Positions 14,222 to 59,259 of a stretch of DNA of 64,000 nucleotides are shown one piece after another. This DNA comes from Faecousia sp. Its GTDB lineage: Bacteria > Bacillota > Clostridia > Oscillospirales > Oscillospiraceae. The translations under genes and the position numbers were made by a program. The number at the start of each line of letters is the position of its first letter. Positions within the stretch are counted from its first letter, which is position 1. The stretch lies in contig JBGVON010000052.1 of assembly GCA_045126495.1 (NCBI GenBank), positions 4,516 to 68,515 of the forward strand, written 5' to 3'. The notes beneath the pieces were generated by a model. The model saw only the letters and a list, made by a program, of their open reading frames with translations. It searched no databases and was not told where the DNA came from.

Positions 14222-15220
14222 ATGGGCTTTGTCAGCTTTGCTTTACAGGGCAATTATAAGCGCTTTTATGGCGATCTGAAAGAACTGTCGAAAAAGGTGG
14301 GCAAGCCTGCATGGTTTATGTTTTTGGATACCGCCGTCTGTGCGTTGCGGTACGGCTCCGGTTTGCAGGATTATCTGAATTTTGGGTTTTATGAAAAAAA
14401 GCATGCCCAACGAAAGAACTATGTGAGCGTGAGCTATCTGGATAAGACCATCACCCGCCTGTCCAATATCAAGTGGTCACCTTATATCTCCAATAAGACC
14501 AATTTTCACAAGAATTACGGCCAGTACACCCGCCGGGATTTCTTTGATCCTGATGGAGGATACGAGGCATTTGAAGGATTTTTGAGCCGTAACCCCGTGT
14601 TTATTTATAAGCCGCAGATCGGTCAATGCGGTGATGGCGTTGCCAAAATCGTTACGGCTGAGATTTCGGACAAAAAGGCTTTTTATAATGAAGCCATAGA
14701 GAAGAAGGCGTGCTTGGAAGAATTGGTAGTGCAACACCCGGACTGGGAGGCGCTGTGCCCCGGTTGCGTGAACACCATGCGGATTATCACCGGCGCGGCA
14801 AAGGGTCAGTCCTGGCTGCTGTTCGCTGCTACAAGAGTCGGTTCCGGTAAGGGTGTGGCGGATAATTTCCACATGGGCGGCAGCGCGGTGCTGATCGATA
14901 TGGAGACGGGTAAGCTTACCGGTAACGGTATCGATAAGAAGCTTAATGAGCATACTCACAGCGCCACCGGCATTCTTTATGACGGCTATCAGGTTCCTTA
15001 TTGGGAGGAAATCAAGGCGTTGTGTCTGGAAGCGGCGCTGGTGAATGACCAGATCCATTTTGTGGGCTGGGATGTGGCGGTGACCCCTGATGGTCCTTTG
15101 CTCATCGAGGGTAACCGTGGTTCCGGCTTTGACCTGCCCCAGGTGCTGGCAAAGCGCGGTTTGAAGGATATGCTGGAAGAGCTGACCGAAAAAGTAGAGG
15201 CTCTGGAAAAGGAAAATTAA
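14222..15220 (+). CDS. Sugar-transfer-associated ATP-grasp domain protein
   Basis: NKTNF, YKP..G.CG.GV, LEE..VQHP, NTMRI, DNFH.GG, GWDVAVTPDGP.LIEGN. GAGGAGG RBS favours ATG 14222. Confidence 0.72.
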   Translation: MGFVSFALQGNYKRFYGDLKELSKKVGKPAWFMFLDTAVCALRYGSGLQDYLNFGFYEKKHAQRKNYVSVSYLDKTITRLSNIKWSPYISNKTNFHKNYGQYTRRDFFDPDGGYEAFEGFLSRNPVFIYKPQIGQCGDGVAKIVTAEISDKKAFYNEAIEKKACLEELVVQHPDWEALCPGCVNTMRIITGAAKGQSWLLFAATRVGSGKGVADNFHMGGSAVLIDMETGKLTGNGIDKKLNEHTHSATGILYDGYQVPYWEEIKALCLEAALVNDQIHFVGWDVAVTPDGPLLIEGNRGSGFDLPQVLAKRGLKDMLEELTEKVEALEKEN

Positions 15221-15225
15221 ATTAG

Positions 15226-15260
15226 ATTCTGCCGTCCGGAAACGTCCCGGACGGCAGAAT
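15226..15260. terminator. Hairpin after the hslO operon
   Basis: ATTCTGCCGTCCGG-AACGTC-CCGGACGGCAGAAT, a perfect 14-bp inverted repeat (end coordinates approximate). Confidence 0.7.
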
Positions 15261-15313
15261 TACACACCCATTAAAATTCCCAAAAAATCCAAAGAAAAAA
15301 ACGAAAAAAGTGC

Positions 15314-15342
15314 TTGACAAAACTGGGTTCAATGTGTATAAT
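15314..15342 (+). promoter_or_regulatory. Consensus SigA promoter of the tRNA operon
   Basis: TTGACA-17 bp-TATAAT with upstream A tracts (UP-element-like). Confidence 0.9.
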
Positions 15343-15383
15343 GAACCACGTCGCTGAGGTGCGTAGCACGGCAGCAAACGTAC

Positions 15384-15459
15384 GGGAGCATAGCTCAGCT
15401 GGGAGAGCATCTGCCTTACAAGCAGGAGGTCACAGGTTCGAGCCCTGTTGTTCCCACCA
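15384..15459 (+). tRNA. tRNA-Val(TAC)
   Basis: 76-nt cloverleaf, anticodon loop CTTACAA, T-loop TTCGAGC, encoded CCA. Confidence 0.97.
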
Positions 15460-15464
15460 TATTT

Positions 15465-15541
15465 GGCCCGGTGGTGCAGTCGGTTAGCACGCCAGCCTGT
15501 CACGCTGGAGGTCGACGGTTCGAGTCCGTTCCGGGTCGCCA
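15465..15541 (+). tRNA. tRNA-Asp(GTC)
   Basis: 77-nt cloverleaf, anticodon loop CTGTCAC, G73, encoded CCA. Confidence 0.97.
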
Positions 15542-15578
15542 CATAACTTTGAGCAGAGCACTTGCTCTGCTCATATAT

Positions 15579-15654
15579 GCCTCTGTAGCTCAGTTGGTAG
15601 AGCAGTGGACTGAAAATCCACGTGTCGTTGGTTCGATTCCGACCGGAGGCACCA
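15579..15654 (+). tRNA. tRNA-Phe(GAA)
   Basis: 76-nt cloverleaf, anticodon loop CTGAAAA, encoded CCA. Confidence 0.97.
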
Positions 15655-15768
15655 CATAATTCTTGGTTCCTGAATTGGAATCGAAAGGCGGCTCTTGGCA
15701 ATATGCCGGTGGCATATTGCAACCGCCGTGGCTTTTCCGCAGAAAAGCGATTCCGACCGGAGGCACCA
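15655..15768 (+). repeat. tRNA-Phe-linked mirror element (114-bp period)
   Basis: 15748-15768 is an exact copy of tRNA 15634-15654 (C56 to CCA). 15664-15685 is a decayed antisense copy of the tRNA 3' end. Internal hairpins at 15698-15720 and 15732-15747. Confidence 0.88.
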
Positions 15769-15807
15769 CTTTTCTAAGCATAGGTCCTTGTGTACAGGGG
15801 CCAATAT

Positions 15808-15883
15808 GCGGGTGTAGCTCATCTGGTAGAGCGCCACCTTGCCAAGGTGGAGGTAGCGAGTTCGAGCCTCGTCACCCGCTCCA
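15808..15883 (+). tRNA. tRNA-Gly(GCC)
   Basis: 76-nt cloverleaf, anticodon loop TTGCCAA, U73, encoded CCA. Confidence 0.97.
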
Positions 15884-16021
15884 ATTATTTAACCCGAGCC
15901 AATGGGCTCGAAAGATATGATCCAATAGTCCTGTGGACTGTTGATCGCGACGGCTTGACGGAGCGATTCCGTAATTTTGCGTTAGCAAAAAGCAAACGAG
16001 CCTCGTCACCCGCTCCAATTA
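15884..16021 (+). repeat. tRNA-Gly-linked mirror element (134-bp period)
   Basis: 15997-16021 is an exact 25-nt copy of 15863-15887 (C56 to CCA plus ATTA). Antisense GGCTCGAA at 15905-15912. Hairpins at 15923-15943, 15946-15965, 15975-15990. Confidence 0.88.
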
Positions 16022-16060
16022 AATAGGATAGGAACGCTTAGCGTTCCTGTTTTCATAAAT

Positions 16061-16135
16061 GGTACCGTGGCCAAGCGGTAAGGCAAGAGTCTGCAAAACT
16101 CTCATTCCCCAGTTCAAATCTGGGCGGTACCTCCA
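16061..16135 (+). tRNA. tRNA-Cys(GCA)
   Basis: 75-nt cloverleaf, anticodon loop CTGCAAA, U73, encoded CCA. Confidence 0.97.
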
Positions 16136-16172
16136 AAAATAACGGATACCCATTTGGGTGTCCGTTATTTTT
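16136..16172. terminator. Bidirectional terminator after tRNA-Cys
   Basis: AAAATAACGGATACCC-ATTT-GGGTGTCCGTTATTTT, with A and T tracts on both sides. Confidence 0.8.
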
Positions 16173-16298
16173 ATGTATGTCCAGATTTGAATAATGTAAA
16201 TGCAACGCGGACGAGCGTTGCCCGCACCGGCTGGACGGTGCGGAACCTTAATTTTTGCCTTTGGCAAAAATGCAAACAAATCTGGGCGGTACCTACCA
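16136..16298 (+). repeat. tRNA-Cys-linked mirror element (162-bp period)
   Basis: 16277-16294 is an exact copy of 16115-16132, followed by ACCA. Antisense ...CCAGATTTGAA at 16172-16191. Hairpins at 16202-16221, 16222-16243, 16252-16270. Confidence 0.88.
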
Positions 16299-16355
16299 AA
16301 ATCTCGCATGTGTTAGTGAATCACAACTTATTGGGAGAAACGTGCAGAGCTTTTT

Positions 16356-17501
16356 CTATTTTTGGTATGATACGCGGCGGTCTTCTTCTTGATAGGGTGC
16401 TTCCGGTCCGGTTTTGCAGAATAGACTGTAAAGCCGTTCTGCCCGGGATTCCAAATCCTGATATGGGTGTTCAACAGGTGCGCCTGCGTTGGGGAAACAC
16501 CCTGTTTCTCGGGCAATTTTTAAGATCTGCCGACCGGTATCGTTAAAAGCCAGAACGCGCGCATAAGGGGCAGGGGAGGTGATATCCTTTTCTGTGATTC
16601 CTAAAAACGCGCACATCACCATCCGGTCCAGCCGGGTTCGGGTGTAACGCTTGGATTTGGTAGCATTCAAGATGTTGGAAAGGGTACTCTGGGTTCTGGC
16701 GTTGCGCATCAGTTTTCGCCAAAGTCCCTCACTGCCGTAGGGCAGGGATTCAAATTCATTGTCTGTCATGGTACGCAGTCGGTATAGTATCGCCTGCTCG
16801 CCGAAGGGCAGATCGTGGAGGGGCGCACCGGAAAAAATCGATCTTGCATCTTCCGGCACATACGCAAGCCAATCTCTGTCGGAAAGCATGCTGTTTCTTA
16901 TGGCAGTGGCGGAGGGATTCTCGGAGTCAATGACCTGATCGTGATACCCTCCGTTTCGCTGAATGACCATTGGCTCCATGGGAACACCCGATTGCAGAAT
17001 CGCCTTGCAATACTCAGTTGCCAAAATATCATTGGGGTGAGTAAGGGTATCTGTATCAAGGCCCATTGCTTTCAGCGCGGCTAGCCTTGCAGCAGGAAAA
17101 GATTGCCCCTTGTCCAGTTCAACCCGCAGCATTTGGGGAAATGTGGGATCCAGTAGCGCCCTTGCGGTGTAAAGCAACGTATCTTCGTTACCACTTTCCG
17201 CGCCAAAACACAATCGTTGACAGAATCCGCCAAGAATCCGCACCCCTTCCCTGGCAAAGCCTTCGGCAGAGGAAAGCGCGGCTGTGATGGGTAATTCCAG
17301 CACCAGATCTGCACCGCATAGGATTGCAGCCCGTGCACGAAGAGATTTATCAATAATGGCGGGCATACCCCGCTGCACATAATTTCCACTCATCAGACAC
17401 ACAATACCGCCATCAGGATCAGCGGATTTTACTGCATCTAATTGCTTTTTGTGTCCCGCGTGCAGGGGATTATACTCACAAATAATGCCTGTGACCTTCA
17501 A
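16356..17501 (-). CDS. tmcAL: tRNA(Met) cytidine acetate ligase (HIGH-type nucleotidyltransferase)
   Basis: GIICEYNPLHAGH, MSGNYVQRG.P, PNDILA.EY, SATAIR, SKRYT.TR. TTG start after AGGAGG. Adjacent to ackA. Confidence 0.85.
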   Translation of the reverse strand: MKVTGIICEYNPLHAGHKKQLDAVKSADPDGGIVCLMSGNYVQRGMPAIIDKSLRARAAILCGADLVLELPITAALSSAEGFAREGVRILGGFCQRLCFGAESGNEDTLLYTARALLDPTFPQMLRVELDKGQSFPAARLAALKAMGLDTDTLTHPNDILATEYCKAILQSGVPMEPMVIQRNGGYHDQVIDSENPSATAIRNSMLSDRDWLAYVPEDARSIFSGAPLHDLPFGEQAILYRLRTMTDNEFESLPYGSEGLWRKLMRNARTQSTLSNILNATKSKRYTRTRLDRMVMCAFLGITEKDITSPAPYARVLAFNDTGRQILKIARETGCFPNAGAPVEHPYQDLESRAERLYSLFCKTGPEAPYQEEDRRVSYQK

Positions 17502-20758: not shown

Positions 20759-20822
20759 AAGTATCTTCCTTCCTGTTGTTCTCAAAATATCCCATATATT
20801 TTAGCAAAGCAGTGGGAGAAAA

Positions 20823-21593
20823 TCAATAGTATTTCACGCAATCGCTGTGGGTTTCCGAGATTTTTACTTCTAAATCGGGGAATGCATGAGCAATTTTTTT
20901 AGCCAAAACCGTTACCACCGGATTTTCTGTTGGAAAGTGACCGGCATCAATGAGATTCAGTCCCAGCTCTTTGGCATCGCAAAACTGGTTATATTTCACG
21001 TCAGCGGTGATAAAGGTATCGCACCCGGATTGCAGCACTGCGGCAATTTCAGAGCCGCAGGCGCCGCCGCCCACCGCAACACGGCAAGCCTGCCGACCGC
21101 CGCTGACGTACCGCAGACCTTCGCAGTTCAGGGCGCTTTTTATATGGGCAAGAAAGGTATCAAGACTTTGGGGTTCGATTTCACCTTGCCGCAGAAACCC
21201 CGCTGGATCTTGGGGGATCTTTTGAATTGCGGTTAAGCCCAAACGTTCTGCAAGCGTGTCATTGACACCGCCGTCCGCGCAGTCCAGATTGGTATGGGCG
21301 TTGACAGCGGCAATGCCGTTTTTGATCAGGGTCATCACTGCGCAACCGGTGGTCGTATCACAGGTAATGGCAGTTAAAGGCTGAAAAATCAGAGGATGGT
21401 GCGTCACCAGCAGGTCTGCACCTATTTCTGCAGCTTCCCGGCATACATGGTCAAAGGGATCAAGGGCAACCAGAATTTTGCGGACTTCCTGACCGGCGCA
21501 TCCGCAAAGCAGACCGACGTTATCCCAGTCACATTTTAAGTTCTGGGGGGCAATGGTTTCTAAAAAATGCAATATATCCTGCACTTTGGTCAT
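20823..21593 (-). CDS. Nif3-like dinuclear metal centre protein
   Basis: WDNVGLL, THHPLIF, HTNLD, GGACG, DAGHFPTE. Confidence 0.92.
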   Translation of the reverse strand: MTKVQDILHFLETIAPQNLKCDWDNVGLLCGCAGQEVRKILVALDPFDHVCREAAEIGADLLVTHHPLIFQPLTAITCDTTTGCAVMTLIKNGIAAVNAHTNLDCADGGVNDTLAERLGLTAIQKIPQDPAGFLRQGEIEPQSLDTFLAHIKSALNCEGLRYVSGGRQACRVAVGGGACGSEIAAVLQSGCDTFITADVKYNQFCDAKELGLNLIDAGHFPTENPVVTVLAKKIAHAFPDLEVKISETHSDCVKYY

Positions 21594-29858: not shown

Positions 29859-31834
29859 ATCCTATGGGCGGAAGAATGCCCCCTAATTATCAGCGACCTG
29901 CGCCCCCTGCGTCTTTACAGGATCTGCCCCGGTATTTGTCTCAGGTATTTGGTGGATTCTTTAAGCGGTTTTTCTATATCTTGAAGCTGGTATGGAACAC
30001 CGGCCACTGGATCCCTGTTTTGTTGACCTTTGTGGCGCTTTTCAAGGGCGTGACTCCGGTTGTCGGTTCGTTGATCTCTCAGCGCATTCTGAACGGTTTG
30101 CAGGAGGTCATTCGGCTTGGTTCTCTGCCGGAAAGCGACTTCTGGAAATCGGGGATTTTGTATCTGCTGATCGCATTCTTTGTTTATCGGTTGCTGATTT
30201 TGGTGGTCAATAACATCAGCAACGCTTTGAACCGGATCGCCGGTGAAAAGGTGGTCATGGAAGTGAAGAAGCAGATCATCCACAAGTCCAAGGAGATCGA
30301 CCTTGCCTCCTTTGACAATGCTGCCTTCTATGAAAAAATGGAAAATGCGGAACGGGAAGCCGGTCACAGACCGTTACATATCCTCACACAGACCCTGGGC
30401 ATTATCAGTTCTGTGATTGAACTTGTCAGTTTTATGGTGGTGCTGCTCTCTGTACCGGGACTTTCCTGGATTACCTTTGTGGTGATTTTGATATCTGTTC
30501 CGTCCGCAATCATCAATTTTATTTATCGCCGCAAGAATTTCCGCTATATGCGATTCAGTTCCAGGGAACGCCGGCAGATGAACTATTTTTCCCGCATTCT
30601 GGTGGATAAGGATCTGGTCAAGGAGATCCGTCTGTACGACTTGGCGGACAACTTTATCGGCCGCTATTTTACAGCATTCAAGGCCTATTACAAGGGCTTG
30701 CGGAAGCTGATTCTCACCGAGGGCGCGTGGCATATTTTCTTCTCGGTGATCACCGGCGTGTCCAATCTGATCTTCTATGTGATCATTGCCAAACGTGTGT
30801 TTACCGGCCAGTTTCAAATCGGTGACTATACCCTTTATACCGGCGCCATCGCCTCTGTGGCCAACTGCATCAGTACCCTGATCACCTCCACCGGCACCAT
30901 TTACGAGGGTACACTGTTTATTGACAATTTGATTACCTTTATGAACGAAAAGCAGACCATTACACCTGTGGTGCAGCCCGCTGAAAAGGTGCAGCATGGG
31001 GGCGCGCATACCATTGAATTTGTGGACGTGAGTTTTCGTTATCCCGGCACAAAGCGGGATGTTTTGAAAAATATCAGCTTTACCATTCATCCCGGTGAAA
31101 CCCTTGCCTTGGTAGGTCTGAACGGCGCGGGCAAGACCACCCTGATTAAATTGCTGACTCGTCTTTATGATCCCACCTCCGGACAGATTCTTCTGGACGG
31201 TAAGGATTTGAAGTGCTATGACGTAAAGAGCCTGTATCAGACCTTCGGTATTATTTTCCAGGACTTTGGTAAGTATGCGCTGACGGTAAAGGAAAATATC
31301 CAGTTGGGGGATATTCGTAAGGAATGCGATATGGATACGGTGCTGTACGCTGCCCGGCAGAGCACCGCCGGTGAGTATATTGATAAGCTGCCCGGCGGTT
31401 ATGATACGCCGCTGATGCGTATTTTTGAACAGAACGGTCTGGAACTGTCCATCGGACAGTGGCAAAAGCTTGCTATTGCCAGAGCCTTCTATGCCGACAG
31501 CGACATTATGATTCTGGACGAGCCTACTGCATCTCTGGACCCCATGGCAGAACAGGAGATATTCAATCAGTTCGATCAGCTGCGGAATAATAAGACCACC
31601 GTGTTTGTTTCTCACCGTTTGTCCAGCGCCACCATAGCGGATCAGATCTTGGTGATTGAAAACGGTTGCCTGATCGAAAAGGGAAGCCACCAGGAGTTAA
31701 TGACGCAAAAGGGGAGGTATTTTGATCTGTTCACTACCCAGTCCAAGCGGTATATAACCCAGGAAAATGCCGAGGAATTGCCCCGTCCACGGCGACCTTT
31801 CCCCGGTAGTTTTCATCAAGTCGGCAATAAATGA
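29849..31834 (+). CDS. ABC exporter, fused permease and ATPase
   Basis: TM domain, then GLNGAGKTT (Walker A), LSIGQWQK (signature), ILDEPT (Walker B), SHRLS. Confidence 0.92.
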   Translation: MAMNPMGGRMPPNYQRPAPPASLQDLPRYLSQVFGGFFKRFFYILKLVWNTGHWIPVLLTFVALFKGVTPVVGSLISQRILNGLQEVIRLGSLPESDFWKSGILYLLIAFFVYRLLILVVNNISNALNRIAGEKVVMEVKKQIIHKSKEIDLASFDNAAFYEKMENAEREAGHRPLHILTQTLGIISSVIELVSFMVVLLSVPGLSWITFVVILISVPSAIINFIYRRKNFRYMRFSSRERRQMNYFSRILVDKDLVKEIRLYDLADNFIGRYFTAFKAYYKGLRKLILTEGAWHIFFSVITGVSNLIFYVIIAKRVFTGQFQIGDYTLYTGAIASVANCISTLITSTGTIYEGTLFIDNLITFMNEKQTITPVVQPAEKVQHGGAHTIEFVDVSFRYPGTKRDVLKNISFTIHPGETLALVGLNGAGKTTLIKLLTRLYDPTSGQILLDGKDLKCYDVKSLYQTFGIIFQDFGKYALTVKENIQLGDIRKECDMDTVLYAARQSTAGEYIDKLPGGYDTPLMRIFEQNGLELSIGQWQKLAIARAFYADSDIMILDEPTASLDPMAEQEIFNQFDQLRNNKTTVFVSHRLSSATIADQILVIENGCLIEKGSHQELMTQKGRYFDLFTTQSKRYITQENAEELPRPRRPFPGSFHQVGNK

Positions 31835-33624: not shown

Positions 33625-35441
33625 TGGACGGAAGAAAAACAGCGTGGCCTTATATTAAGGGGTATAAATTCAACAGCTTGCTGCTGAAAACCTTTATTTA
33701 TGTGTTTGTTCTGGTGATTATACCTCTTATGATGGTATTGAGCCTGAATTATAATAAATTCAATGGCGTGGTTAATAACCGCGTTATGGATATGAATGAA
33801 AGCCTCCTGCAAAAAAATGCGGTGGTGACAGATAATATTATGGTGGGCCTGCTGGACAGTGTTAATAAAATGTCGCAGCTTGGTTCTGTGATGGAAGTTG
33901 TACAAACTGAGGAAACGGACGAGACCTACAATGAGAAGGTCACAAAGACCGTTACGGAAGTACAGAACTATACCAAGTCCAACAGCATGATCCTTTCTAC
34001 AAGCATCTACTCTGATGTGACTGGAATGCTTATTGATGAAGCTGGCGCCAAATGGGCGAATCAGACCATCAATGCAGGAAAATGGTACGATATCCATAAA
34101 AAATTTCCCATGGTGATACCGTATATCTTGGTAAATCATTCCAACAGCATTTACATCTGCCAGCCTATCTGGTCTGCCAGAGGCGAGCGGGTAGGACTGT
34201 TTGTGCTTGAAGTGGAGTTTCAAAAGATCCGTGACGTTCTGGAAAGTCAGGATACTGCACAGCAGGGCATCTTTTTTGTGATGGATGTCAGCGGTCAGAT
34301 CATATATTCTAATGAGCGCAGAAGCGCTTCTTGGAATGAAGCTGCCATAAAAGGATATGAAGACGATATCACCAAGGTAAAAACCGGTGAATCCCGTCTG
34401 GTGACAGGTCACGGCAAGCGGGTGGTCTCCGTTATGGAATCCTCCCATAAAAGCTGGCGCTATGCGTTTGTGACAGACTTGCCGGATTATAAGGAAGAGG
34501 TCGAGGTTGTCCGAACTTTTCTGATTTCCTCTATTACTGTTGGCGTACTGACCAGCTTGATTGTCGCTTATTTGATTACATATTTTACGTATCGTCCCAT
34601 TCGGAAGATTATGAATGTGATCCAGAATCCCCAACTTCATTGGAATGAGCGGGAAGCCACCAAGGCATCCAACGAATTGCTTTTTATTACCAGCAATATC
34701 ATGGCGGACGGCGATCCGGAGTCGGACATTTCCGAAGAGTTGGGCGACAGAATACGCTCTCTGCGGCAAGCCCAGTTCCGGGCGTTGCAGTTTCAGATTG
34801 ATCCCCACTTCCTCTATAATACCTTGGAGACGATCAAGTGGAATGCAGTGGCGGAGATGGGTCTTGGAAACAAAACCAGCAAAATGCTCACCAAGGTTGC
34901 TAGACTGTACCGTTTGGGTCTTGAAAATGATGATGTGATCGTTTCACTGAAAGAGGAGCTGGATTTCCTAAAACTCTATATTGAGATTGTACAGATCCGT
35001 TTTGGCGAATCTATACAGTTTCATTGGAATATAGATGAAAACCTATACCAATGCAGTATGATAAAAATGTGCTTACAGCCTATCGTTGAAAATGCTATTC
35101 AGCATGGTCTGCGGCCGAAGAACTATATTGGTAACATTACCGTTTCAGCAAAGTTAATTGATGAACAGCTACACGTTAGCGTGGAAGATGACGGACAGAA
35201 TATGGCTCTGTCCGAAATGAAGCGGCTCAATGAAAAACTCAGAACAGGAGCAGGTTTTGAAGAGAGTAAGGTAGGCCTGCGGAATGTGAATGAACGGATT
35301 AAGTTAATATATGGAAAGAAATACGGTGTGAGCATCGAGAACGTTGTACCGCAGGATGATACCGCGGACGACAGCAGCGGTGTGCGCGTTGTGCTTACCT
35401 TTCCGTGCAGAAATTTAAATAGGAGTGAGGAAACGAAATGA
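33624..35441 (+). CDS. YesM-like sensor histidine kinase
   Basis: Two TM helices around an extracellular Cache-like region, LQFQIDPHFLYNTLE, LQPIVENAIQHG, GLRNVNERIKL.YG. Confidence 0.93.
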   Translation: MDGRKTAWPYIKGYKFNSLLLKTFIYVFVLVIIPLMMVLSLNYNKFNGVVNNRVMDMNESLLQKNAVVTDNIMVGLLDSVNKMSQLGSVMEVVQTEETDETYNEKVTKTVTEVQNYTKSNSMILSTSIYSDVTGMLIDEAGAKWANQTINAGKWYDIHKKFPMVIPYILVNHSNSIYICQPIWSARGERVGLFVLEVEFQKIRDVLESQDTAQQGIFFVMDVSGQIIYSNERRSASWNEAAIKGYEDDITKVKTGESRLVTGHGKRVVSVMESSHKSWRYAFVTDLPDYKEEVEVVRTFLISSITVGVLTSLIVAYLITYFTYRPIRKIMNVIQNPQLHWNEREATKASNELLFITSNIMADGDPESDISEELGDRIRSLRQAQFRALQFQIDPHFLYNTLETIKWNAVAEMGLGNKTSKMLTKVARLYRLGLENDDVIVSLKEELDFLKLYIEIVQIRFGESIQFHWNIDENLYQCSMIKMCLQPIVENAIQHGLRPKNYIGNITVSAKLIDEQLHVSVEDDGQNMALSEMKRLNEKLRTGAGFEESKVGLRNVNERIKLIYGKKYGVSIENVVPQDDTADDSSGVRVVLTFPCRNLNRSEETK

Positions 35442-59034: not shown

Positions 59035-59183
59035 TGGTGGACCTGATCGGATTCGTTTAATCAATGTTCGCCTCCGTCAAGCCGTCGGCGGTAACGCTCG
59101 TCCGCATTACATTTGTACTTTCGAATCCGCTCGGCACAAATATCGTACCAATAAAAGACCACCCTAAAAGGGTGGTCTTTTAT
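59035..59183 (-). repeat. tRNA-Ala-linked mirror element (149-bp period)
   Basis: 59035-59055 is an exact copy of 59184-59204 (C56 to CCA on the minus strand). Inverted T-loop copy at 59120-59129. Core 59059-59114 is 43/56 identical to 16198-16253. Confidence 0.9.
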
Positions 59184-59259
59184 TGGTGGACCTGATCGGA
59201 TTCGAACCGACGACCCCCACAATGCGAATGTGATGCGCTCCCAACTGCGCTACAGGCCC
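59184..59259 (-). tRNA. tRNA-Ala(CGC)
   Basis: 76-nt cloverleaf on the minus strand, anticodon loop TTCGCAT, G3:U70 alanine determinant, encoded CCA. Confidence 0.96.

Follow-up and report, generated by a model that had tools for sequence, protein, structure and literature searches.

tRNA genes are classic landing sites of mobile DNA, and a direct repeat of the 3′ segment of a tRNA gene is the classical mark of the integration of an island or a prophage. Islands, prophages and CIMEs that enter at the T-loop by means of a tyrosine integrase create a direct repeat that starts in the T-loop, and they leave the tRNA intact. They also target the tmRNA gene, and repeated insertion gives rise to arrays, as is said to be the case for the ssrA islands of Dehalococcoides. 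Integron attC cassettes rely on an IntI-type integrase and on R''/R' core sites, with a crossover between G and TT. Furthermore, REP sequences and REPINs with their RAYT transposases, as well as the miniature relatives of IS200/IS605 elements (PATEs) with the TnpB guides, are small, protein-less and hairpin-based repeats. Another element found directly behind a tRNA gene is RtT (rttR, RF00391) of the tyrT-tyrV locus in E. coli, which to our knowledge is known at only one tRNA locus. RtT gives rise to a processed transcript that has been linked to stress and whose mode of action is stated as unknown (10.1101/2024.07.17.603846).

Here, we describe repeats behind the tRNA genes of Faecousia, an uncultured gut bacterium, starting from a stretch of 64,000 nucleotides (the window). 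Four tRNA-end repeats in the window each form the right border of a small DNA cassette that lies behind a tRNA gene, contains no gene and is rich in hairpins. Judged from their sequences, the inserts at different tRNA genes are homologous to each other and not bare att scars. Each cassette carries an antisense arm (AS) that is complementary to the T-arm of its own tRNA, and it is closed by a sense copy (S) of the 3′ end of the same tRNA. A literature search did not retrieve a description of such elements, and the phenomenon is apparently undescribed.

The direct repeat from the T-loop, the intact tRNA, the targeting of tmRNA and the arrays are shared with the T-loop islands. In contrast to these islands, the cassettes are only 93-190 bp long, lack an integrase, possess a target-matched antisense arm and have one hairpin core in common at different tRNA targets; moreover, the identity starts at tRNA position 55-57 and excludes the 5′ T-stem. 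The border between positions 55 and 56 also differs from that between G53 and T54, which an integron-like G/TT crossover would have. With the REP and PATE elements, the cassettes share the pairing between an internal segment and the region of the cleavage site, and all of these elements probably act as single-stranded DNA. However, the cassettes have no GTAG head, their 'guide' of 9-14 nt is target-specific and 13-66 nt of the target are duplicated. Unlike in a MITE, AS and S as the inverted arms differ from target to target, and the duplication has no fixed length.

RtT resembles the cassettes in lying directly behind the tRNA, on the same strand and in tandem units. Reading of the K-12 sequence revealed that the unit behind tyrV ends in a direct copy of tRNA-Tyr 58-76 and that it contains GGGGAAGGAT, which is antisense to tRNA-Tyr 60-69 and lies ahead of a structured, GC-rich stretch. 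Whereas S starts at 55-57, the first copied position in RtT is 58. The RF00391 covariance model gave no match in 15200-16400 of the window at E<=5, and there is no sequence similarity to RtT. Unlike RtT with its single locus, the cassettes occur at at least 20 tRNAs and the tmRNA gene, with 0-27 copies depending on the species.

Four tRNA-end repeats in the window

The assembly from which the window is derived comprises 1.76 Mb in 103 contigs and is 90.8% complete. The window carries tRNA genes for Val, Asp, Phe, Gly and Cys on the plus strand and for Ala(CGC) on the minus strand. At a distance of 93-141 nt behind the genes for Phe, Gly, Cys and Ala, positions 56-76 of the respective tRNA recur as a direct copy. 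In the whole assembly, 16 of the 43 tRNA genes have a downstream copy within 330 nt. An exact repeat of 21 nt inside 150 nt exceeds by far what chance would give (4^-21 per position). The features are as follows (all on the plus strand except for the last three):

15579..15654, +, tRNA-Phe(GAA), host of copy 1 (ARAGORN and Rfam tRNA)
15677..15685, +, AS of the Phe cassette, GGAATCGAA, complementary to tRNA-Phe 54-62
15686..15747, +, short-type core of the Phe cassette, H1 GCAATATGCC-GGT-GGCATATTGC followed by a CTTTTC/GAAAAG hairpin
15748..15768, +, S of the Phe cassette, tRNA-Phe 56-76, 21/21 identical
15808..15883, +, tRNA-Gly(GCC), host of copy 2 (ARAGORN and Rfam tRNA)
15899..16017, +, Gly element, covariance-model match of 83.6 bits; AS GGCTCGAA at 15905-15912, H1/H2/H3, GCAAA, S at 15997-16017
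16061..16135, +, tRNA-Cys(GCA), host of copy 3 (ARAGORN and Rfam tRNA)
16136..16177, +, terminator hairpin between tRNA-Cys and the Cys element, read from the sequence
16178..16297, +, Cys element, covariance-model match of 112.6 bits; AS CCAGATTTGAA at 16181-16191, H1 type B, H2 type B, H3, ATGCAAA, S at 16277-16297
59035..59133, -, Ala element lacking H3, covariance-model match of 76.4 bits; AS CGGATTCGAA at 59120-59129, H1 and H2 type B, TTAAA, S at 59035-59055
about 59147-59183, -, terminator ahead of the Ala element
59184..59259, -, tRNA-Ala(CGC), host of copy 4

A preliminary description of the window had placed the four junctions at GAAAAG/CGATTCC (15748), GCAAA/CGAGCC (15997), GCAAA/CAAATC (16277) and TTAAA/CGAATCC (59055, minus strand), and re-reading of the sequence gave the same positions. 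The reported lengths of the exact copies, 21, 25, 18 and 21 nt, were likewise recovered, as was the extra A before CCA in the Cys copy. The identity of the Gly copy continues for 4 nt beyond 16017, to 16021, and the Cys copy consists of 18 exact nucleotides followed by the one inserted A.

Anatomy of the cassettes

A cassette is composed of an optional terminator, AS, a linker, the hairpins H1 and H2, an optional hairpin H3, the sequence ATGCAAA and S. AS is complementary to positions 54-62 of its own tRNA and often to 52-65, which covers the T-loop and the 3′ T-stem; for instance, the arm behind a tRNA-Pro reads ACTGGATTCGAACC. S is the sense copy of the same tRNA from about position 56. Both H1 and H2 come in two types, and the linker in front of H1 is conserved. 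The inserts in the window have a size of 93-141 nt and contain no open reading frame; the family as a whole ranges from about 93 to 190 bp. The motif AAATGCAA occurs twice as a direct repeat in the window at 16192-16276 and in the other long-form copies, where the two repeats bracket the hairpin core, one lying in the linker just before H1 and the other just before S.

AS and the start of S can pair with each other as a helix, P1, that closes a multi-hairpin junction. In an alignment of 22 copies, 86.6% of the cells in the proposed structure were paired as compared to 72.7% in shuffled alignments, and none of 500 shuffles reached the observed value. Sliding the pairing partners against each other reduced the paired cells to 35-47%. 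Moreover, 24 of the 32 pairs of the structure showed changes on both sides, which is a compensatory pattern, but the copies share descent, so that the pair counts lack independence and overstate it.

The breakpoint in the T-loop

The position of the breakpoint was tabulated for 105 elements from 12 Faecousia genomes, for 84 of which the upstream tRNA could be identified. Of these 84 elements, 51 show identity between S and the tRNA from position 56 onward, 27 from position 55 and 6 from position 57, and none has its start at position 54 or earlier or at position 58 or later. The scatter over the T-arm that had been named as evidence against a fixed breakpoint is thus not seen in the larger sample. 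S matches the tRNA at positions 56-69 in at least 77 of 83 copies, at position 55 in 28 of 83 and at position 54 in 2 of 83. About a third of the copies, a subfamily ending in GCAAAT or GCATAT, keep T55, and C56 is replaced by T in a few copies. The preliminary claim that the copy always starts at C56 and never includes T54-T55 therefore holds for the four copies in the window but not for the family, in which T55 is often kept. The same description had envisaged one cut regardless of the identity of the tRNA; of this proposal, the common breakpoint at 55-57 has stood, and it extends to at least 20 tRNAs and tmRNA.

At positions 54-61, at least 78 of 83 copies have an AS that is complementary to the tRNA, with the complementarity fading on both sides. 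The arm overlaps the breakpoint by two invariant A's opposite T54-T55, which are unable to pair with S because S is preceded by A's. The right end of S is variable: it diverges from position 70 onward in 14-27 of 83 copies, and in 7 of 33 tested copies S runs through the downstream terminator. The duplicated stretch of the target covers 13-66 nt. A simple target-site duplication that includes the terminator was considered and rejected, as it fits only 7 of the 33 copies. A BstBI-like cut between TT and CGAA was also ruled out, since many targets have TTCAAAT, TTCGAGT or TTCGATT loops.

Distribution and movement between tRNA genes

A covariance model that was built from the aligned cassette copies was used for counting the elements in genomes. 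The model yielded 27 matches in the window's genome, one of them behind the tmRNA gene (L024, 89-436 and 487-605; contig C85), where AS and S match the T-arm and the 3′ end of tmRNA. Tandem arrays are present in this genome behind Gly(CCC), behind Arg(TCT) and on contig C65. Copies were also detected in 32 of 36 congeners, with 1-26 copies each, and the copy number inside the genus ranges from 0 to 27 per genome. In other genera of the same family only 4 of 120 had copies, and the search in 24 other families of the order did not return any. A pattern scan of public genomes pointed to Faecousia and Oscillospiraceae of human and ruminant guts as the hosts. The targets comprise at least 20 different tRNAs besides tmRNA, and the cassettes are always located on the tRNA strand, downstream of the gene. 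Cassettes were also observed behind partial or degenerate tRNA 3′ halves that are not called by ARAGORN (L026, 520-560, corresponding to about 10020-10060 of contig C2 in the window's genome; L023 on contig C91), and one of them, a Pro-like fragment, has its start close to the anticodon stem.

Comparison with close relatives revealed that the cassettes are insertions. In about 25 congeners, the spacer between tRNA-Phe and tRNA-Gly is 3-35 nt long as compared to 153 nt in the window, and the spacer between tRNA-Gly and tRNA-Cys measures 35-55 nt as compared to 177 nt. The sequence after S corresponds to the ancestral spacer or flank in these relatives. About 25 relatives have no cassette at the Phe and Gly sites, and both copies are therefore recent, lineage-specific insertions. 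At the Gly site, a related element is present at the same place in genome G029, whereas the site is empty in most congeners. For the Ala copy, no orthologous empty site was found, tRNA-Ala and glyA not being syntenic in the relatives. In genome G030 (L056), the spacer between tRNA-Phe and tRNA-Gly is 78 nt long and holds GGAATCGA, a Phe-type antisense arm, without a sense copy; here, the site that is occupied in the window may contain a truncated or decayed cassette.

Different tRNAs can carry cores with an identity of 85-90%, both within and between genomes, and AS and S match the local tRNA. For instance, the cores behind the Ser and Val tRNAs of genome G024 are 88% identical, as are the core behind Tyr in genome G000 and that behind Leu in genome G006, and H1 of the Phe element is identical to H1 of a Lys element in the same genome. 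Of the 105 cores, 78 have their nearest neighbour behind another tRNA type or behind an unidentified one. In those cases in which S deviates from the tRNA, AS follows the tRNA 19 times and S 4 times. Behind one tRNA-Arg, the core is 95% identical in two species, each of which has its own related pair of proximal and distal terminators; proximal and distal terminators resemble each other inside one species, whereas those of different species at the same tRNA do not. Whether the proximal terminator is part of the cassette is inconsistent between copies.

Search for a mobilising enzyme

The preliminary description had drawn on integrases that cross over in the T-loop. A classical tyrosine integrase of this kind is not supported, given that the inserts of 93-141 nt are devoid of open reading frames and that all eight tyrosine recombinase genes (PF00589) of the genome lie away from them, none being in or beside a cassette. 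Remnants of integrases were not detected inside the inserts, and neither an integrase nor TnpB was found linked to the element. A mechanism in which TnpB is guided by an omega-RNA was ruled out, as TnpB (PF07282) had no match in the window's genome, which is 90.8% complete. The only match to a Y1 transposase is a single-copy RAYT-type enzyme of 157 aa with an HUH motif (L001, 1288-1761 and 1790-1860; contig C31 of the window's genome). This gene is followed by two inverted, GTAG-headed REP hairpins that form a REPIN and are unrelated to the tRNA cassettes; as the RAYT is flanked by its own GTAG REPINs, a Y1 transposase was rejected as the mover.

Large serine recombinase genes are located directly upstream of cassettes in at least 9 genomes. 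Such an enzyme looked promising because covariance-model matches lie 50-250 nt downstream of these genes, the products of which are 34-43% identical to the query recombinase. The loci are:

L180 (genome G006, contig C135), 77-151, 14625-16148 and 16100-16560
L162 (contig C100 of the window's genome), about 20790-21290
L163, L166, L167, L168, L173 and L174, further recombinase loci

The last codons of the recombinase genes are encoded by GGTTCG, a spacer and the acceptor-CCA of the cognate tRNA, and all 8 loci that were read (8/8) have a spacer that exceeds that of the cognate tRNA by exactly 5 nt. A shift of the zinc-ribbon motif between attP and attB has been described for serine integrases (PMC3783163). 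The additional 5 nt at the recombinase ends correspond to this shift, and the conserved GGTTCG of the T-loop would be the outer (zinc-ribbon) motif of the recombinase site. Genome G006 has one complete element, consisting of tRNA-Glu, 14.5 kb of cargo, the recombinase gene, the copy with the longer spacer and an array of Glu-type cassettes. Here, tRNA-Glu is followed by DNA of the element and not by a cassette, and the array lies beyond the recombinase on the host side. It follows from this order that the recombinases split the tRNA from a pre-existing cassette array. The large serine recombinases appear to integrate at or near the CCA end and not in the T-loop. Thus, the arrangement in G006 rules them out as mobilisers of the cassettes, and the linkage reflects shared target sites. 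The products of an attP x attB reaction also look different: the tRNA and S of a cassette have the same spacing, with the additional 5 nt being confined to the recombinase-proximal copy, and the cassette borders are position 55-57 and a variable right end. It was also considered that AS could serve as the right half-site of an attB for a serine recombinase, but the arm is too far from CCA, especially when a terminator intervenes.

Possible modes of insertion and maintenance

The reading that we favour, albeit tentatively and with somewhat less than even confidence, is that of a non-autonomous, protein-less DNA cassette that is specific to Faecousia and whose antisense arm guides the insertion at a fixed break in the T-loop. 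AS spans the breakpoint, and its two A's opposite T54-T55 are invariant even though they cannot pair with S; the arm probably serves as an internal guide or splint by which the cassette is aligned to the T-loop of a target tRNA gene. A putative enzyme acting in trans would break the DNA between positions 55 and 56, and repair or strand-displacement synthesis from the fixed nick could then produce a duplication with a variable right end. AS and S would be re-templated from the new target at each move. What speaks against this model is that no mobilising protein was found among the TnpB, Y1, tyrosine and large serine recombinases that were checked. We know of no transposition chemistry that would explain how an inverted (AS) and a direct (S) copy of the new target arise in a single event.

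The model can be taken further to a nucleic-acid-guided insertion, in which a protein-less DNA module brings its own guide and is inserted by a putative, possibly host-encoded enzyme, and we put this forward as a speculative idea of rather low probability. Such a module could switch to any tRNA or tmRNA gene, since every insertion would rewrite the guide and the flanking copy from the target. If AS proves to be a guide, the cassettes would constitute a naturally retargetable insertion module and offer a way into the mechanism of the RtT repeat of E. coli, which has been unexplained for decades and would rest on the same principle if the guided-insertion reading is true. The cassettes are a second and apparently undescribed way of using tRNA landing sites that requires no resident gene. 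Their breakpoint in the T-loop varies by no more than one or two nucleotides, the target sequence is present in both orientations and the cassettes have moved between at least 20 tRNAs within one genus. As the cassettes mimic att sites and partial tRNAs, programs that search for islands and prophages as well as tRNA annotation will be misled by them in gut metagenomes.

The alternative that deserves the most attention, although we regard it as unlikely, is a functional RNA of the RtT type, i.e. a tRNA trailer that is composed of P1, three hairpins and a tRNA-like 3′ tail. The trailer would be either co-transcribed with the tRNA or made separately, and it could affect tRNA processing, enzymes recognising the T-arm or the CCA end, or stress signalling; it would have spread by duplication and selection and not by transposition. 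The invariable location on the tRNA strand downstream of the gene, the compensatory changes in the structure and the complementarity of AS to the tRNA itself (19 cases vs 4) agree with this explanation, and the RtT of E. coli, which has the same layout of AS and S, has been described as a processed, stress-linked transcript (10.1101/2024.07.17.603846). However, the composition of the helices points in the other direction. H1 and H3 contain 1290 Watson-Crick pairs, 8 G·U and 8 A·C pairs, so that G·U amounts to 0.6% and equals A·C, whereas the acceptor and T stems of the tRNAs from the same genome have 472 Watson-Crick, 41 G·U and 1 A·C pairs (8% G·U). A near-absence of G·U pairs at the level of A·C pairs is typical of strand-symmetric DNA palindromes and not of RNA helices. 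Moreover, a strong terminator is situated between the tRNA and the element in most copies, and inspection of the conserved linker by eye did not uncover a convincing promoter. The scarcity of G·U pairs and the terminators ahead of most copies thus favour a role at the DNA level, although these pair counts come from copies of shared descent and overstate their independence. We infer that the element works as DNA, folded as single strands or cruciforms, and not as RNA; in this respect it would differ from RtT, which is a processed RNA. The patchy occurrence of the cassettes also argues against a functional RNA, as close species differ in their presence and some congeners with a completeness of at least 97% carry only 0-1 copies. 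Finally, there is no Rfam match, only tRNAs reaching a family threshold in 15200-16400 at E<=5.

It is distinctly improbable that the cassettes need no dedicated enzyme and are relocated by rare ordinary recombination, with AS and S being kept matched to the tRNA by template switching during replication. This process would combine the correction of quasi-palindromes with that of direct repeats and be seeded by the universal T-loop sequence. It would account for AS and S being near-identical to the neighbouring tRNA while the cores diverge, for the variable right end of S, for helices that are pure Watson-Crick palindromes and for terminator pairs that are alike within species but not between species at the same tRNA. 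However, neither the sharp left border at 55-57 nor the arrival of the core at a new tRNA, as in the lineage-specific Phe and Gly insertions, is explained by template switching.

Even less can be said for scars, that is, attL/attR remains of tRNA-integrated islands or prophages (of the tyrosine or large serine type) that have lost their interior, which we consider very unlikely. Direct repeats of tRNA 3′ ends are the classical signature of integration, the genus does have elements with a large serine recombinase that enter at tRNA ends, and cargo of 0.8-2.1 kb is sometimes present between one tRNA-end copy and the next cassette. The cargo occurs because elements with a large serine recombinase integrate between the tRNA and its cassettes. 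Independent scars at 20 or more tRNAs would differ from each other, whereas the cassettes have one conserved, structured core together with a target-matched AS. The absence of integrase remnants from the inserts, the recombinase junction at the CCA end in G006 with the cassette array on the host side, and the same half-site spacing in the tRNA and S, unlike in the attP/attB of serine integrases, also contradict this explanation. The last explanation, which had been raised in the preliminary description, is a split tRNA in which positions 1-55 pair with the distal copy and the cassette is removed from the RNA as an intron-like insert in the T-loop; formally this could apply wherever the distal copy is complete, but it can hardly be correct, as the proximal tRNA is intact in every case, terminators intervene, the helices lack RNA-like G·U pairs and a quarter to a third of the distal copies (14-27 of 83, diverging from position 70 on) have no acceptor end.

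Variant cassettes and neighbouring motifs

Besides the long form, a short type of cassette exists that consists of AS, one nested hairpin and S from position 57. In the Glu array of genome G006, it alternates with the long type (L180, 16180-16290 and 16480-16560), and it resembles the Phe copy at 15655-15768 of the window. Two further variants are located on contig C88 of the window's genome. Behind tRNA-Leu(CAA) (L018, 4815-5187 of the contig), a different, GC-rich core of about 110 nt comes with the antisense arm CGGACTCGAACCG. Behind tRNA-Thr(GGT) (L019, 8197-8525), AS covers positions 49-56 and the direct copy starts at 49, with an ordinary cassette coming next. Moreover, two unrelated loci of this genome, Leu-CAG and Gly-CCC (contig C47, about 29890-29912, and contig C88, about 34136-34158), have the same 22-nt motif, CACARTGATTTRTCAAACTAAG, immediately after the distal tRNA-end copy.
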